DNA of 64,000 bases. Source: Eledone cirrhosa (Eukaryota). Positions 4,759 through 48,138 of the stretch are shown here, in pieces. The stretch spans positions 391,282,001 through 391,346,000 of the forward strand of contig OZ024740.1 in the NCBI GenBank assembly GCA_964016885.1. Reading direction: 5' to 3'. A program made the position numbers and the translations under genes. The notes below the pieces were generated by a model. That model did not search any database, was not told the origin of the DNA, and saw nothing but the letters and a program-made list of their open reading frames with translations. Within the stretch, counting starts at the first letter, position 1; every line of letters begins with the position of its first letter.

Positions 4759-4856
<98 letters not shown>

Positions 4857-4860
4857 ATAT

Positions 4861-5422
4861 AGTTTTAATATAGATGAGATACTACAGGACTAGAACTGTT
4901 TCATTCTTTAGAAATCATCAGGAATCTGGGTATCAAAAAATAAATATGGTATTTTTAGGTCTCTTCAGGTGGTAGGAGAGGGTAGGGAGTGGGATGGGTG
5001 TAGGTCATTGGTTGATAGAAAAGGGAATTCATTAAAAGCTAATTCTTCAAAGCTATAGTTTATATTTAGAGTAACAAATTTACTTAAAAATAAGGAGTGG
5101 CACCCCATTCTGAACTTGTTTATAGAATTCTTTCTGCCTTTGTTACTCTAAATATAAACTATAGCTTTGAAGAATTAGCTTTTAATGAATTCCCTTTTCT
5201 ATCAACCAATGACCTACACCCATCCCACTCCCTACCCTCTCCTACCACCTGAAGAGACCTATAAATACCATATTTATTTTTTGATACCCAGATTCCTGAT
5301 GATTTCTAAAGAATGAAACAGTTCTAGTCCTGTGGAATCTCATCTATATTAAAACTTTTATAATCTGCAATGTATTGAGTACCTTACTTACTGTGGTTAC
5401 CTCCGATTAAACCCGGAATAAC

Positions 5423-5423
<1 letters not shown>
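4861..5423. mobile_element. Fold-back HHR element (arms ~4861-5078 / 5139-5356, plus 3' tail)
   Basis: Near-perfect inverted arms; HHRs at 4877-4927(-) and 5290-5340(+): agattc-CTGATGA-tttc taaa gaat-GAAA-cag..ctg-TG/TA-gaatct. Confidence 0.85.
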
Positions 5424-5461
<38 letters not shown>

Positions 5462-6007
5462 CATATAGAATGATGCCTATCACGGAATATACATTATTTT
5501 ATTCAGTAATCTGAATTTTAATGGGTGAACATAAAGTATAATTAGAAATTGAAAAAGGCCGATGGATTGTTGTTAGAATCGTTAGGACGTCAGACAAATT
5601 GCTCTGCAGCATTTACTCATGGGTAATTAGGTTGTGAGTTCAACATTGTCTTTCATTTTTCTGGACTGGATAAAATAAAGTATCAGTCATGTACTCGTGT
5701 CGATATAATCAACTTTCCCCTTCACTAAAAATTGCTTGCCTTCTGCCTAAATAAGAAATCATTATTAGAAATTGAATTCAAATCCTGCCGATGTTAACTT
5801 TGTGGGGTCAATAAAATAAAGTACCAGTAATACACTGGGTTAATTGCTGGCCTTGTGCCAAAAGTAGAAACAATTATTAGAAATTGAAAAAAAAAGGTGA
5901 ATATGGAGCTTTAAAAGTTAATGTATTCATTTCTGACGACCTGTAAATCGGACGATTTGTGTGTGCGAGCAAGCGTACATGCGCACGTGTATGGAACAAG
6001 AACAAGT

Positions 6008-7381: not shown

Positions 7382-8620
7382 TACTTAGGTTAATAGGAGT
7401 TAGGTATTGTATACCCGTGTCCCATTAAGGTATTGGCAGCATAATAATTAGCTCTATGCTTTGGAGCAGAGCCGTATATATGATAAAGAACACAAGAGCG
7501 TCTACAACATCAAAAGATTTTTATTGGCTTACAATGTTTATTCCTTACGTAACCGTACGATTCTTCAGAGCTATAAAAGGGGTTTGATTGGTGTTATGGA
7601 CTCTACCTACCAAACATTCAAGAACAAAGAGTTTAGAGAGTAAAGAGCAAAAGCAGGAGACGATAAGTCTAATTTTGGTGCGGGAGGTTGGGGTGTGGGT
7701 GCTTGTTTACTAGCTGTGGTCACATTCATTCCCGGGAGTCGAGTGGTTAGTGGAGCCATAGATGGGGTGGCGTCGATAGTAGGGTGCAGAGGGTGTGCGG
7801 AGGCTACACACACACAAAGGGCATACAATATATATATAACGGAGGAGAAAGTACATGAGGTAATTAGAAATGGAATAAGAGTAATAATAATAATCTATAG
7901 TTAATAATGTATAATAAGGCATGGGGAAGATTACACTATAATAAGGTATAATAGTAAGAATAAGGTAAAATATAAAGGTGGATAAAAGTGAAAATAAGAA
8001 TAAAGATAAAAAAAAAATATATATAAAAAATATAAAAAATATATAGAGAATATATATATTCTCTATATATTTTTTATATATATATTTTTTTAATCTTTAT
8101 TCTTATTTTCACTCTTATCCTCCTTTATATTTTACCTTATTCTTACATTTATACCTTATTATAGTGTAATCTTCCCCATGCCTTATTATACATTATTAAT
8201 TATAGATTATTATTATTACTCTTTTTCCATTTCTAATTACCTCATGTACTTTCTCCTCCGTTATATATATATTGTATGCCCTTTGTGTGTGTGTAGCCTC
8301 CGCACACCCTCTGCACCCTACTATCGACGCCACCCCATCTATGGCTCCACTAACCACTCGACTCCCGGGAATGAATATGACCACAGCTAGTAAACAAGGA
8401 CCCACACACCACCCTCCCGCACCAAAATTAGACTTATCGTCCCCTGCTTTTGCTCTTTACTCTCTAAACTCTTTGTTCTTGAATGTTTGGTTGGTAGAGT
8501 CCATAACACCAATCAAACCCCTTTTATAACTCTGAAGAATCGTACGGTTACGTAAGGAAGAAACATTGTAAGCCAATAAAAATCTTTTGATGTTGTAGAC
8601 GCTCTTGTGTTCTTTATCAT
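7379..8620. repeat. ~1.1-kb palindrome (arms ~7481-8050 / 8050-8620) with degenerate HHRs
   Basis: Mirror-image ORFs in the track (7607-7922 vs 8178-8529); ctgaaga-at-cgta cggt tacg..gaaa-cattg-ta-agc at 8532-8573. Confidence 0.9.
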
Positions 8621-10208
8621 ATATATATATATATACATAGTATTAAGGATACTATTTATGGTTATGTATATAGTAAAACCTTTTATAGTTATATATATTT
8701 TAAACCCTAAATAGTGAAAGACAGTAATTTATTACTATCTCTAGCAACAAAGATCAGGAGAACACCTTACACCTCATCTCCACACCCATTAATCCACTTT
8801 AACGCAAATAGTGACATCTTCCTAGTACCTTTTACCCTAGAGATATCCCCACGTACTTCTACTTTTGGTATATTGGCCTTCAATTACTTAGACTACATTA
8901 CACCAATATATAATTAATGTAAACTTTAAGCACGGAATTGGTTGTGCTAACATTGTCCTGTGTATGGAGTGCCATCATTGGATAAATGGAAGATTAAGTA
9001 ATTAATTTATTAACATAAAAGAGCTATATAATCTATATGCTGAGTGCAATGAATTATGTACAGGTGATGTATGAGTTATAAATACATGTATGACTTGATG
9101 GTCAGATCAGTGTCTTTGTAAGTGAGAATTGATCTCTGGACTACCCTAGTGATATTTAGCTTTGCCATGCAATCAGACATGCAATGACCCAGAGCTTACC
9201 AGGAGTCATATATAGAAGTGATTCTAATAAGACCCTGCCAGGTTCTGCGGGTGGACTACACTTACAAAGATCATTGATTTGGAGATCTGACTCTTCATGT
9301 AGAATATTCGGTTGTGGCACTCTATGATAGAAGGTAATCCTCCTAATATGAACACCTTTAGTACTTCTTGATAGACTACACTGTAATTTATAGATAAGAT
9401 ACTTAAATTTAGAAATTGATTATAACCTTATATGATAGGGACTCTTTTGAGACACCATTAATGTACTTTAAGATAATAAATTTAGCTATAGAAATCAGCT
9501 AGTTACCTCCCCTTACGCATTAACTCCCCTTAATCACACACACACTTCCGGAATATAATACGATGTCATCTCTCACAACAAAAACAACCTGCTCTATAGA
9601 ATCGAATAGAGAACGACAAGCTGTGATTTTCTAACATGGTTCACCAGGCACCCAATGTTGAATCATCGTGGATTATGTGATGGACATGTAGTCTATAAAT
9701 TGCGTTTCCTGGATTGTGAGAGTGGTGTGTGCGAGGACAGTGGTGCTGTTTTGATTCTCATTTGTAATATTTTTGATATTTTGGTGTTTCTCTACACACG
9801 GGCTTCTATATCGTACAGGTGTGTGTGAAAAATGCTTTACCAGTACAGCCCCCGTGATGCTCTTGATTGCCTGCTTTGACTGCTTGTTTTACATGTAACA
9901 ATCTGCCGCACTATAATCTTGTATAAATAGGACACGCGTGCATGCCTCACGTGCGACTGTTGCATACACTGGCTACTCCAAACGTTCCTCTTGCTTTATC
10001 TTCGAAAACTGCCAATGTTTTATTTTAATTTTAATTTTAATTTTAACTTTAATTTTGTCCTTTAATATGACTGTAATCTTTGTATGTAAATTGCCATGCT
10101 ATATTATTATAATGGATGTCAACCCACTGTGGGTCAATATATACATATGTTTCTATATGTCTCTTGTGTTAAAAAGGAGGTCAAGTATGTAAAAAAATCA
10201 CTGAATAA

Positions 10209-26972: not shown

Positions 26973-27220
26973 CAATAATTATTAATAATGGTGTATCGTG
27001 CAATGACCATACTCGATAACGAGGGGGCAGCCATCATATATATATATATATATATAGAATTTGGATATAATGCTCTGAAATAGCGATATATATGTGAAGA
27101 CAAACATAGAATATTCGAAAATATTCTGTATGTTTATAATAAACATTTCGAAGACCCAATCGCTATAGAATAGAATACGTCACGTATTACAATTTGAGAT
27201 TCTCGATAAAAGCAAGGGAA

Positions 27221-27263
27221 GTAACCTACGCGTTTCATTCTTATTAGAAATCATCAGGATTAC
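27221..27263 (-). ncRNA. Type I hammerhead ribozyme (unit 1)
   Basis: rc: gtaatc-CTGATGA-tttct aata agaat-GAAA-cgcg-TA-ggttac. Confidence 0.88.
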
Positions 27264-27532
27264 ATATCCAGTGCTTTTATCGAGAATGACACAGCTAGAG
27301 ACTTATAGAATACTTAGCTGTGTACAGGAACTGGTTTGAAAGAGCGGTTGCCGGTCCGGCAGAAATTAGAATTTGGATATAATGCTCTGAAATAGCGATA
27401 TATATGTGAAGACAAACATAGAATATTCGAAAATATTCTGTATGTTTATAATAAACATTTCGAAGACCCAATCGCTATAGAATAGAATACGTCACGTATT
27501 ACAATTTGAGATTCTCGATAAAAGCAAGGGAA

Positions 27533-27575
27533 GTAACCTACGCGTTTCATTCTTATTAGAAATCATCAGGATTAC
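27533..27575 (-). ncRNA. Type I hammerhead ribozyme (unit 2)
   Basis: Identical to unit 1, offset by 312 nt. Confidence 0.88.
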
Positions 27576-28049
27576 ATATCCAGTGCTTTTATCGAGAATG
27601 ACACAGCTAGAGACTTATAGAATACTTAGCTGTGTACAGGAACTGGTTTGAAAGAGCGGTTGCCGGTCCGGCAGAAATTAGAATTTGGATATAATGCTCT
27701 GAAATAGCGATATATATGTGAAGACAAACATAGAATATTCGAAAATATTCTGTATGTTTATAATAAACATTTCGAAGACCCAATACTAAATATATTTTCA
27801 CAGTAAAGGCTCTACTTCACATAATCATTTCACATAATATCAAATCTATGAGATTTTGGTATTATTTATTTTGAGAACAATAACTTAACGTCGGTATGAG
27901 TGGCTAATTACGGGTGGTTTTAACAGAAATAGAGGAAAGAATTCTGGTCGGATACGGCAAGTTTAAATGTTAAAGCCTTATGCTTCTTTTACTAAATTCA
28001 CGAAAATGTCCCCAAAGAACTGAGCAACCCTGTAGCGGGTGGGGAGGTG

Positions 28050-38188: not shown

Positions 38189-39188
38189 CTAGCAGAAAAA
38201 CCACCCTTCGGGTGGTTTTCTGCTAGCACGTGTAGTGTGTATATTGATATTATACGCAAGTATATATGCATGTAGATATGATACGTCAAATAAAATCGTA
38301 ATTGACAATATATAATACATAGAAATTGAACGAAGACTGCGTTACAATGTCTTATTTAATCAGTAACGTAATCCATGATACATTAAAAAAAGACGATATT
38401 ATATATCTGCTAGTATGTGTAGTGTGTATATTGATATTATACGCAAGTATATATGCATGTAGATATGATACGTCAAATAAAATCGTAATTGACAATATAT
38501 AATACATAGAAATTGAACGAAGACTGCGTTACAATGTCTTATTTAATCAGTAACGTAATCCATGATACATTAAAAAAAGACGATATTATATATCTGCTAG
38601 TATGTGTAGTGTGTATATTGATATTATACGCAAGTATATATACATGTAGATATGATACGTCAAATAAAATCGTAATTGACAATATATAATACATAGAAAT
38701 TGAACGAAGACTGTGTTACACTGTCTTATTTAATCAGTAACGTAATCCATGATACATTTAAAAAGACGATATTATATATAAACTGCATTAGGAGAAAATT
38801 AGTGACAGAAAATTAATATGTTTATTTAAGCGATGGCCAACCGGAAGTGTTGACATTTCAGAAATTTTAAAGAAGTGAATCTTTAAATAAACAAAATATA
38901 TTTAATCAACAGCCACGAAATTTAGTAGATAAATTATGTAATATTCATTTATTATTTATTCAAAGTTCACTTTGAATAAATAATAAATGAATATTACATA
39001 ATTTATCACTTTGCCTTTCATCCTTACGGGGTCGATAAGATAAAGTACCAGTAATACACTGGGATAATTGCTGGCCTTGTGCCAAAAAAGTAGAAACAAT
39101 TATTTATTCAAAGTAATCCAACTTATTTTACTAATGGGATAAAAAATTATAAACCGTACGCAGTCCCGCGCTCCTTACTTTATTATAG
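38189..39188 (-). mobile_element. Non-autonomous Helitron-like element with internal 187-bp tandem repeat (x3)
   Basis: rc 3' end accaccc gaa gggtggt ttttctgCTAG|t; ctgctag at 38220, 38407, 38594; other boundary uncertain. Confidence 0.55.

Positions 39189-44426: not shown

Positions 44427-44433
<7 letters not shown>
44068..44433. mobile_element. CAGAAGA-family fold-back element interrupted by a SINE fragment (~44190-44345); HHR 44365-44415(+)
   Basis: agttt-CAGAAGA-t-ccc gttaa ggg-t-GAAA-gca..tgc-TT-aaact. Confidence 0.75.
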
Positions 44434-44498
<65 letters not shown>

Positions 44499-44994
44499 TA
44501 AATATATATATATTGTTATACTTGGGGAGGGTCATATTTGCGTAATATTGCCAGAATTAATAACAGAACACACTCACTGTTTGGTTAGTTTTCGCTTCTC
44601 GCTGTCTTTTATATCTGCGATCTAACTTACTCGGTCCTCAATGTTGCCATTGACTGACCGGCGGTCAAAAATAATACAGATACAATATAGACACAAACAC
44701 ATATATATAGTTTATCATAAATCTTTCGTTGCACATCTGCAACATCGTCAGTGGTGTTATATTTTCCTCCTGTTGTGTTGTATGTCTACGCCATTTTTAT
44801 TCAGTCTGTCTATATATTTATTTATTTATTTGCTTGTTTGTTTATTTTATTTCGTCTTCTTTGCGCATGCGTTTGCGTGTGTGTATAGTGTTATGTTTGC
44901 TGTGTGATGGGTGACTAGTGTGTGTTTATGTGCTTGTTGTTATTGTGCTTGTGTATGTATTTATTTATTTATTTATCTTATTTTATTTACTTAT

Positions 44995-46776
44995 TTATAC
45001 TTCTCTTAGGTCAGTGTTGTTTGTTTGGGTGTTGTTGTTATTCCATTCATTCTTTCTGTTTAGCTTTGGTCTTCTAATTTCTATTTCACTGGCCTCTCTG
45101 ATTTGCCTATCTGCTGGGTCATTTCTATGTTTAGATATTATTCTAATTTCTATGTTGTCTATGTTACCGTCATGTTGTTGTCTAGCATGTTCGTATAGTA
45201 CTGACCCGTTTTTTCGTCCTTTTAGTTCCCCCCAGTGTTGGTCTATCCTTTCACCTATGCTACGAGCTGTCTCACCTATGTATGTTGTTGTCATGTTTCT
45301 GCAAGTACCCTCTGTACATTTTATGCTATAGACTACATTTCTAGTTTTACAGTTTATCCGGGGATTCACCTTACATATGATACATTTCCTATTGGTACAG
45401 TGGGTTTTCTTAAAAGGGTAGGTTTTGCTGATCAGGGATTTTATGGTGGTTCCTGGCTTTTCTACCACCTTTATTTTTAAGTGGGTCTTTCTCAGGGCCT
45501 TTCTACGCTGGTTAGCTAATTTCCCTCCAGGGGTGGCGTCCACAAACATGACACTCTGGTATCTCTGGTTGTCGTACCATGAGGTGGCTTTCCCTATCTT
45601 ATGTCTAGCCCTATCTAAGCTATTCCATGATTTGCTCCTGTATAATGGGCAAATTCCTTTCATGTCCAGTTCTATGAGGGTCTTATACTTTTCGTATACT
45701 CTGACTCTGTCTCTTTGGTTGTAGCTAGAGAACTGCATGCGGTTGATGAAGTGTTGGATGTGTCTTTCTATTTCTGTTGGGTCGCACATGTGGGACACAT
45801 TCTTCATCATTCGTACCAAATCTGTGATCAGAATATTAAACTTAGCACTACTGGACATTGCTGAGTTTTTGAGTATCAGGTATTTGGAGGCCATGGGTTT
45901 AGCATAGTGTGAGTGGAGAATTTGGGCTCTCTCGTCTATAGTGTTAATCCAGAGTTCTGTGTCTAATACAGGTAGTCTATTGTTAGGGTGTTTGGAAGGG
46001 AAGTCGATAGTTACAGTTATACTCTGGTGTATGGAATTAGCTATCTGCTGGATGCTTTCCATCGTGCTACGTTCAAAATCAAACTTGTTAGTGCTCTCTA
46101 GTGGGGGTGTTCTTATAACTATATTGATATCGTCTACATAACGAGAGTACATGATGAGGTCTATGGAGCTTTCATTAAGGAGATCTTTAAGTCTCCTTTC
46201 CCACCATACCATGAAAAGGTTGGCAACATCACCAGCTATGCTGACGCCGATGGCTGCTCCCTCATTTTGGGTGTAGATTTTCTCGTTGAACTTAAATAAG
46301 TGGTCCTTTAGGGTAGTTTTGATACTAGCCCCTATTGCATGTGCGACCATTTTTCTTACCTGATCATTGTTTTTGGGGGTCCGTATAGCTTTGGTCCACC
46401 CAATCCACCTTCCCATGGGAGTCTTTTTTGCCATTGAGGTTATGGTGGGGGGTCTACCTGTTATAGGTCTACTAGGGCAGAAACATCTAAGGTCATGGCT
46501 GTCTAGGTAGTCAGTGTCGTAGGTAAGTCTAAGTAGGAGGCCCAGTTCGTCTGTGTCGACGTCGCAGAACTCCACCTCACTCTCAATGATCATCTCCACA
46601 CATATTTTCACAGCAAAATCAATGTTAATGGATGGGTACAGTGACACCACATCCATGCTGCCTATTATGCAGTTGGATAGGCTCCTGTTTTTGTTGCACT
46701 CACTGATTCTGCTGAGGAGGTCCTCTGTACTGTCACATACATCTGGGGACATCTTGATTATGGGGCGTATAACCAT
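44995..46776 (-). CDS. PLE reverse transcriptase + Cys linker + GIY-YIG endonuclease (frame open upstream to the ~46840 inversion junction)
   Basis: GSMDVVSLYPSI; YTQNEGAAIGVSIAGDVANLFM; YSRYVDDI; HCTNRKCIIC; NVVYSIKC..YIGETARSIGERIDQH. Confidence 0.93.
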   Translation of the reverse strand: MVIRPIIKMSPDVCDSTEDLLSRISECNKNRSLSNCIIGSMDVVSLYPSINIDFAVKICVEMIIESEVEFCDVDTDELGLLLRLTYDTDYLDSHDLRCFCPSRPITGRPPTITSMAKKTPMGRWIGWTKAIRTPKNNDQVRKMVAHAIGASIKTTLKDHLFKFNEKIYTQNEGAAIGVSIAGDVANLFMVWWERRLKDLLNESSIDLIMYSRYVDDINIVIRTPPLESTNKFDFERSTMESIQQIANSIHQSITVTIDFPSKHPNNRLPVLDTELWINTIDERAQILHSHYAKPMASKYLILKNSAMSSSAKFNILITDLVRMMKNVSHMCDPTEIERHIQHFINRMQFSSYNQRDRVRVYEKYKTLIELDMKGICPLYRSKSWNSLDRARHKIGKATSWYDNQRYQSVMFVDATPGGKLANQRRKALRKTHLKIKVVEKPGTTIKSLISKTYPFKKTHCTNRKCIICKVNPRINCKTRNVVYSIKCTEGTCRNMTTTYIGETARSIGERIDQHWGELKGRKNGSVLYEHARQQHDGNIDNIEIRIISKHRNDPADRQIREASEIEIRRPKLNRKNEWNNNNTQTNNTDLREV

Positions 46777-46837
46777 TGAGAGGAAGTAGGAGATCCTGTT
46801 GTTGCTAGCTATATTAGCTCCGCATACGGGTCTTGTT

Positions 46838-47369
46838 GGGAAATTAGCTAATCAGTGTAGAAAGGCCCTGAGAAAGACCCACTTAAAAATAAAGGTGGTA
46901 GAAAAGCCAGGAACCACCATAAAATCCCTGATCAGCAAAACCTACCCTTTTAAGAAAACCCACTGTACCAATAGGAAATGTATCATATGTAAGGTGAATC
47001 CCCGGATAAACTGTAAAACTAGAAATGTAGTCTATAGCATAAAATGTACAGAGGGTACTTGCAGAAACATGACAACAACATACATAGGTGAGACAGCTCG
47101 TAGCATAGGTGAAAGGATAGACCAACACTGGGGGGGAACTAAAAGGACGAAAAAACGGGTCAGTACTATACGAACATGCTAGACAACAACATGACGGTAA
47201 CATAGACAACATAGAAATTAGAATAATATCTAAACATAGAAATGACCCAGCAGATAGGCAAATCAGAGAGGCCAGTGAAATAGAAATTAGAAGACCAAAG
47301 CTAAACAGAAAGAATGAATGGAATAACAACAACACCCAAACAAACAACACTGACCTAAGAGAAGTATAA
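46838..47369 (+). pseudogene. Inverted duplicate of PLE GIY-YIG region, frameshifted
   Basis: Nearly identical peptide to the minus-strand ORF until an extra G in the G-run at ~47130. Confidence 0.88.
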
Positions 47370-47846
47370 ATAAGTAAATAAAATAAGATAAATAAATAAA
47401 TAAATACATACACAAGCACAATAACAACAAGCACATAAACACACACTAGTCACCCGTCACACAGCAAACATAACACTATACACACACGCAAACGCATGCG
47501 CAAAGAAGACGAAATAAAATAAACAAACAAGCAAATAAATAAATAAATATATAGACAGACTGAATAAAAATGGCGTAGACATACAACACAACAGGAGGAA
47601 AATATAACACCACTGACGATGTTGCAGATGTGCAACGAAAGATTTATGATAAACTATATATATGTGTTTGTGTCTATATTGTATCTGTATTATTTTTGAC
47701 CGTCAATCAGTCAATGGCAACATTGAGGACCGAGTAAGTTAGATCGCAGATATAAAAGACAGCGAGAAGCGAAAACCAACCAAACAGTGAGTGTGTTCTG
47801 TTATTAATTCTGGCAATATTACGCAAATATGACCCTCCCCAAGTAT

Positions 47847-47935
<89 letters not shown>

Positions 47936-47940
<5 letters not shown>

Positions 47941-48138
47941 GGAGCTTCTACAGGACTAGTACTGTTTCATTCAGATGAAATCTTCAGGAAGCCCCTTCAG
48001 GAGCTTCCTGAAGATTTCATCTGAATGAAACAGTACTAGTCCTGTAGAAGCTCCTTCTATAAAATAAAAAATTTTACTCTGCCATGTATTGAGTACCTTA
48101 CTTACTGTGGTTATCCCCGACTCAACCCGGGACCTACG
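47936..48138. mobile_element. ~200-bp fold-back element with two back-to-back HHRs (47941-47995 -, 48000-48054 +)
   Basis: ggagcttc-CTGAAGA-t-ttca tc tgaa-t-GAAA-cag..ctg-TA-gaagctcc. Confidence 0.9.

Follow-up and report, generated by a model that had tools for sequence, protein, structure and literature searches.

Metazoan non-LTR retrozymes are tandem units of a few hundred nucleotides with a GC content below 45%, thousands of copies and no open reading frame (ORF), with Penelope-like elements (PLEs) proposed as their driver (Cervera and de la Pena 2020, PMC7229834). Vertebrate retrozymes are described as non-autonomous PLE derivatives, on the evidence of co-occurrence and terminal-repeat homology (bioRxiv 10.64898/2026.07.22.740005). 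Which enzyme spreads animal retrozymes, and how, is called open both in the latter work and in the discussion of PMC7229834. The ribozyme that characterizes such units, the canonical metazoan hammerhead, has a short palindromic helix III that needs a second copy (PMC4209133). Statements on cited papers refer here and below to the passages concerned, not to each source as a whole.

PLE insertions carry an inverted, 5′-truncated partner copy and a 30–40-bp tail, often at one end only; how PLEs form their tandem and inverted structures and the tail is called open, while the (TA)n bias of Neptune elements has been linked to a CX2-5CxxC linker (Craig et al., PMC8557442). With the purified PLE protein PAc, a predicted dimer, both strands were nicked and extended, and copying started at two neighbouring internal sites, which delimit the tail (Frangieh et al., PMC11167929). 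The main substrate of PAc was uncleaved RNA, and ribozyme mutants were still inserted (PMC11167929).

Within the window, the whole 64-kb stretch of DNA analysed here, we found a non-coding hammerhead tandem element that was likely produced when a Neptune-type PLE protein copied a retrozyme RNA circle into (TA)n, with both cut strands priming. Earlier publications already cover retrozymes, the circles they form and the PLE hypothesis (PMC7229834; bioRxiv 10.64898/2026.07.22.740005). The element is of real retrozyme type, and its new feature is the insertion anatomy. The first-pass annotation had described a head-to-tail 312-nt array of about 2.3 identical copies abutting (TA)n, and this description was borne out: the array at 27055–27784 has an exact period of 312 nt (730 nt, 2.34 units, 0 mismatches) and adjoins (AT)n at its left, where its first 2 nt are common to array and microsatellite. 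The features of the locus are as follows.

27036..27056, unstranded: (AT)n target beside the outer end, putatively providing the primer strand for reverse transcription; (TA)n is common at A and B ends
27055..27784, minus strand: single-arm retrozyme insertion of 2.34 identical 312-nt units; the ribozyme RNA is the minus strand
27055..27060, minus strand: start site B, the tail-bearing end and the end used at this locus; B ends fall at unit positions 310–9 (mode 3)
27059..27094, minus strand: 36-nt tail between sites A and B, with a 14-nt motif including a 3-bp hairpin that is common to all sister families
27086..27095, minus strand: start site A, an AU-repeat tract, not the end of this copy; A ends fall at unit positions 30–46 (mode 39)
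27102..27135, minus strand: tetraloop hairpin directly 5′ of site A on the RNA; sister families show compensatory changes in it
27199..27287, minus strand: downstream one of two type I hammerheads, its stem I extended by 16 bp; the predicted cut lies between 27227 and 27226
27227..27538, minus strand: predicted 312-nt monomer from double cleavage and putative circle, from sequence geometry
27289..27323, minus strand: hairpin from the first-pass annotation; sister families keep its loop motif unchanged, though not its stem sequence
27511..27599, minus strand: upstream one of two type I hammerheads; the predicted cut lies between 27539 and 27538
27783..27795, unstranded: truncated end (5′ on the RNA) at the flank, joined via about 2 nt of shared AT

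The unit resembles metazoan non-LTR retrozymes (PMC7229834) in its tandem arrangement, its GC content of 35%, its canonical-size type I hammerhead, its thousands of copies and its lack of LTRs and of an ORF, and its 312 nt fall within their low-GC, 150–450 bp range. As had been annotated, no ORF of note is present (the longest ATG-started one on the repeated unit has 34 aa), and the unit lacks the reverse transcriptase (RT) plus GIY-YIG ORF of an autonomous PLE. At the far end of the window copy, about 30 nt are absent from the start of the neighbouring repeat when compared with nine other copies of that flank repeat, and no target-site duplication was seen in the same comparison. The window copy consists of one B arm only. 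Because it has two intact hammerhead motifs and the antisense arm is absent, it could serve as a source locus.

The minus strand carries a type I hammerhead in each full unit, as annotated, with CUGAUGA at 27257 and 27569. In each core, stem I has 6 bp and stem II 4 bp, alongside GAAA, a palindromic ACGCGU stem III and a GUA triplet, and both hammerheads lie inside the annotated 16-bp helix that extends stem I. The hammerhead had been called canonical, which holds for these elements and fails at the pair closing stem II, which is U.U instead of G10.1-C11.1; apart from that pair, the form is that of the canonical metazoan hammerhead (PMC4209133). Across 312 cores in the genome, of which 296 are intact, the closing pair is U.U in 278 and A-U in 34, and neither matches the G10.1-C11.1 consensus. 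A U.U pair closing stem II may slow hammerhead cleavage. An Rfam search returned HH9 only, at a sub-threshold score (19.9 bits, E 0.1).

Folding the monomer as a circle, a check suggested at first pass, gave z = −4.7 against 100 dinucleotide shuffles, and the further hairpins annotated there are both present in the sequence. The predicted lowest-energy fold of one unit differs from the active fold; a dimer duplex between two hammerheads is feasible by predicted structure. The invertebrate ribozymes of PMC7229834 mostly cleave as monomers, whereas the window ribozyme, judged by its structure, would need a dimer. RNA circles were shown for the retrozymes in that paper, whereas the circle of the window family is putative.

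We searched the 3.0-Gb genome with an exact query (a 34-nt core) and with a looser core. There were 513 exact and 14,243 looser matches, the latter including a few unrelated cores (1 in the first 100), and none for the reversed-pattern controls. The matches are dispersed, so that the single locus that the first-pass annotation had named as a possible refutation is not what we see. Unit lengths of 310, 311 and 312 nt occur. Units within one locus differ at only 144 of 82,594 sites, which makes this a young family. Two sister families, both older, have units of about 315 and 321 nt, and the 14-nt tail motif has 26,029 exact matches genome-wide.

The RNA structure covaries across these sister families. 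In 16 units, 20 of 38 named pairs were changed on both sides, compared to 2–4 in slid controls, on the basis of three lineages only and with a structure drawn from the same sequences. The two-sided changes cover the catalytic C3-G8 pair (to U3-A8), stem II and the long helix; in the tetraloop hairpin (helix 7), 2 of 7 pairs are changed on both sides, and each family has its own sequence for the palindromic stem III. Dispersal and covariation together support the retrozyme reading of the first-pass annotation. The unit is present in three organisms, with close copies in two besides this genome. Contig set X4 (organism B) holds one 342-nt unit contig (311 + 31) that could equally be a closed loop or a tandem array and was therefore given no weight; the flanking short repeat is uncovered in that set, though covered in three others.

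We mapped the ends of 76 loci: 39 from the best-scoring list, 19 in positional order and 18 more that completed C1, where all 30 exact-core loci were mapped as an unbiased census. L075 (an unrelated core) and L156 (a PLE extension) were excluded as family loci, and the class of L067 was taken from earlier end mapping. Two inverted arms were found in 55 of the 76 loci, and both outer ends are 3′ ends of the ribozyme strand. Each mapped locus has at least one end at site A or site B, which lie about 36 nt apart, with B located 3′ of A on the RNA. Once L146 had been dropped as a duplicate of L147, the 54 independent two-arm loci comprised 52 with one A and one B end (A+B), 2 irregular on one side and none with A+A or B+B. 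Single-arm loci (n = 21) end at A in 13 cases and at B in 8, and the C1 census gave 22 A+B, 1 irregular and 7 single-arm loci. At least four TA repeats lie within 24 nt of 119 of the 128 A or B ends; one A+B insertion (L057) sits in (AAT)n instead.

Arms exceed one unit in 83 of 106 cases, with the longest at about 10 units, and cross the predicted cleavage site in 97 of 106 (both counts include the duplicate L146). The inner ends are scattered round the unit, with 2 of 108 within about 5 nt of the cleavage site compared to 4.2 expected. Permuted start points had been predicted at first pass; arrays instead start at one or other of two fixed sites, and variation is limited to the inner ends. 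Excluding 11 of the 54 junctions, which have inserted or mismatched bases, the inner joins overlap by at least 1 nt in 39 of 43 cases, and the mean overlap of 2.9 nt (0.75 nt at random) was reached by 0 of 100,000 resamples.

These ends bear on whether the repeats arose at the DNA level, as a satellite or fold-back element, or as an assembly artefact, with the ribozyme motif as a passenger. Tandem repeats can be misassembled and arrays do expand locally, as in a 28-unit sister array on C14. A fold-back or artefact would be expected to have mirror ends, yet 52 of 54 loci have two unlike ends, and the flanking sequences are not the same either. Moreover, the polarity of the arms tracks the ribozyme strand, both outer ends being RNA 3′ ends, the RNA structure covaries, and the unit is found in three organisms. 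This origin is largely refuted, and we give it very little credence. The C14 array itself (G000:C14:23499005-23508129) belongs to the 321-nt sister family, has about 28 units in tandem, is less uniform than the young arrays and is a retrozyme becoming a satellite.

In L1 twin priming, both target strands prime on one RNA, which yields an inverted part and a microhomology join, and the second start site is variable. The family resembles this process in that both target strands would prime one RNA and inverted parts are joined via microhomology. It differs in having two fixed, internal starts and in that either arm can span several template lengths. A LINE-type enzyme producing the inversions by twin priming on the same RNA would account for the inverted part and its microhomology join, and LINE-like RT fragments are present in the window; against it, a poly(A) tail is absent, the window locus has no target-site duplication, the starts are fixed at internal sites 36 nt apart, which matches a PLE tail rather than the variable second start of L1, and the genome's PLEs have the same target and end pattern. 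We consider such an enzyme highly improbable.

The anatomy matches that of PLE insertions in three respects: a 36-nt tail at one end, arising from two start sites (A+B in 52 of 54 loci), an inverted 5′-truncated partner copy (55 of 76 loci) and a (TA)n target, as for Neptune and Naiad (119 of 128 ends). An inverted 5′-truncated partner arm, a 30–40-bp tail often at one end, (TA)n and two internal starts are shared with Neptune PLEs and PAc (PMC8557442, PMC11167929), as is a hammerhead upstream of the start sites. Its distance from them is 132–134 nt in three retrozyme families and 117–171 nt in three PLE families of this genome. The tail, the inversions and the (TA)n targets thus support the PLE driver that the first-pass annotation had suggested, and mobilization of the hammerhead repeat by PLEs is in our view very probable.

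There are also differences. Unlike PLEs, the window element encodes no protein, and its arms are made of many identical units. Site A is an AU-repeat tract whose sequence would allow pairing with a (TA)n primer, whereas initiation by PAc involves no homology (PMC11167929). In the main text of PMC7229834 the word 'inverted' and fixed start sites do not appear, whereas two-arm inverted insertions dominate the window family. Likewise, in the main text of bioRxiv 10.64898/2026.07.22.740005, inverted arms go unmentioned for retrozymes, the word 'tail' is absent and insertion ends are unanalysed, whereas the PLE link here comes from insertion anatomy.

Candidate enzymes are encoded in the same genome, which contains many elements with an RT, a C-terminal GIY-YIG and a CX4CX2C linker, with open frames that include 938 and 1096 aa; from the linker, they appear to be of Neptune type. 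Intact ORFs of this type lie at L119 and L121. The elements end in (TA)n, and the two ends are unlike in four two-arm insertions (L121, L124, L129 and L131). The terminal repeats of the genome's PLEs carry similar hammerheads, with a U.U closing pair of stem II in two. Those of L119, L129, L137 and L138 have U3-A8 in place of C3-G8, as does the 321-nt retrozyme family. Named homologues of the PLEs come from bivalves or bivalve-symbiont assemblies, which fits a mollusc, and no host gene was recognised in the 64-kb window.

BLAST of the unit against 50 of the 150 scored GIY-YIG loci (30 of the 50 covered over only 3.3 kb) gave no homologous PLE terminal repeat, the only hits being other small hammerhead elements inserted nearby. 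The 20 tail-motif loci inspected were all retrozyme-family pieces, and none was continuous with a PLE ORF. We leave the partner PLE unnamed because these 50 and 20 loci, a sample far from exhaustive, yielded no homologous terminal repeat. A search with the terminal region of one PLE family returned internal copies only. In the window itself, a PLE of another type at 44432–47932 has a 618-aa open frame, in which RT and GIY-YIG-like motifs were recognised by eye, and two inverted arms in (TA)n that bear the same end; the A+B pattern is consequently no rule for all PLEs. A fragment related to this PLE lies at 3–398.

Several steps would lead from an array to a new insertion. The array would be transcribed, two hammerheads would pair through their palindromic stems III and free a 312-nt monomer, and a host ligase could close the monomer into a circle. 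A PLE RT-endonuclease, probably a dimer, would then bind near the tail and nick both (TA)n strands. The genomic footprint shows copying from one target end at site A and from the other at site B, which lies 36 nt 3′ of A. The arms of up to about 10 units that run past the cleavage junction would represent laps round the circle, and the variable, microhomology-rich joins between head-to-head arms could form when the two cDNA ends anneal, each priming the other. After loss of one arm, the remaining arm would be joined directly to the flank, as in the window. More specifically, an asymmetric protein dimer might work on one 312-nt circle, starting at A from one strand and at B from the other, with strand-displacement laps by both subunits and a microhomology join of the cDNAs; we give this arrangement an even chance.

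An RNA circle is probably the template. The first-pass annotation took the non-integer copy number as a sign of a circle, which is not evidence by itself. We instead compared variants among units, leaving out 5 of the 76 loci. At 6 loci, variants seen at one locus only (that is, absent from the rest of a 71-locus sample, out of probably a few thousand loci) are fixed in all covering units of both arms, for instance in 11/11 and 10/10 units at L073. Only two variants occupy unit subsets across arms, and they are out of phase. Variants carried by some units of one arm are often two units apart; this partial sharing within arms, together with the L146/L147 pair, indicates that arrays also change length after insertion.

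Two other templates were considered. Cleaved linear monomers as the sole template were rejected, since arms cross the cleavage site without pile-up or scars; a dimeric circle is not supported, as the two-unit periodicity is confined to single arms.

The main rival template is an uncleaved linear multimer. It would be transcribed from an array already in place; PLE two-site priming on it would need no circle, and local duplication would keep arrays long. PAc prefers uncleaved RNA and still inserts ribozyme mutants (PMC11167929), and the two-unit sharing within arms and the L146/L147 pair point to expansion after insertion. In addition, GUG replaces the GUA cleavage triplet in both arms of L068 (3/3) and L045 (5/6), so the template at these loci may not have been cleaved. 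Possible sources of such copies are an uncut template and a circle altered by A-to-I editing or by mutation; no A-to-I bias among fixed variants was apparent by eye. Conversely, at 6 loci every unit of both arms carries the locus-specific variants, the two cross-arm subset variants do not match in position, intact cores number 296 of 312, and the ribozyme shows covariation between families. Linear donors alone would also be expected to shorten arrays each generation. We regard the linear multimer as unlikely and retain the RNA circle as the template.

Searching the literature other than subscription papers, paper supplements, Repbase and Dfam, we found no report of a strict one-tail-per-insertion pairing or of multi-unit arms on both sides; in the literature other than subscription papers, Repbase and Dfam, we found no cephalopod retrozyme family. 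This young family, with thousands of near-identical copies, brings retrozyme spread and PLE structure formation together in one footprint, and its 312-nt template with mapped start sites is ready for an existing in vitro assay. If the asymmetric-dimer arrangement is true, these insertions would record the PLE reaction on a genome scale, which would explain the PLE tail and inverted copies, identify the class of enzyme that spreads animal retrozymes and supply a minimal natural substrate.

Other elements in the window were also recorded. At 1830–2560, a different hammerhead element with a unit of about 323 nt has two inverted arms in (AT)n, and its ends are about 48 nt apart, which is the A+B pattern in another family. 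Three 187-nt tandem units with 98% identity lie at 38219–38779, behind a GC-rich hairpin and CTAG; they have no hammerhead core, and the arrangement resembles a Helitron-type end. Small inverted elements with a hammerhead occur at 47934–48061 and at L121, L124, L127, L129 and L151. Their stem II nearly equals that of the retrozyme, and cleavage would fall about 21 nt from one end, with the second end longer. Many more short inverted-arm elements are present, including those at 981–1379, 4764–5467 and 7475–8625.
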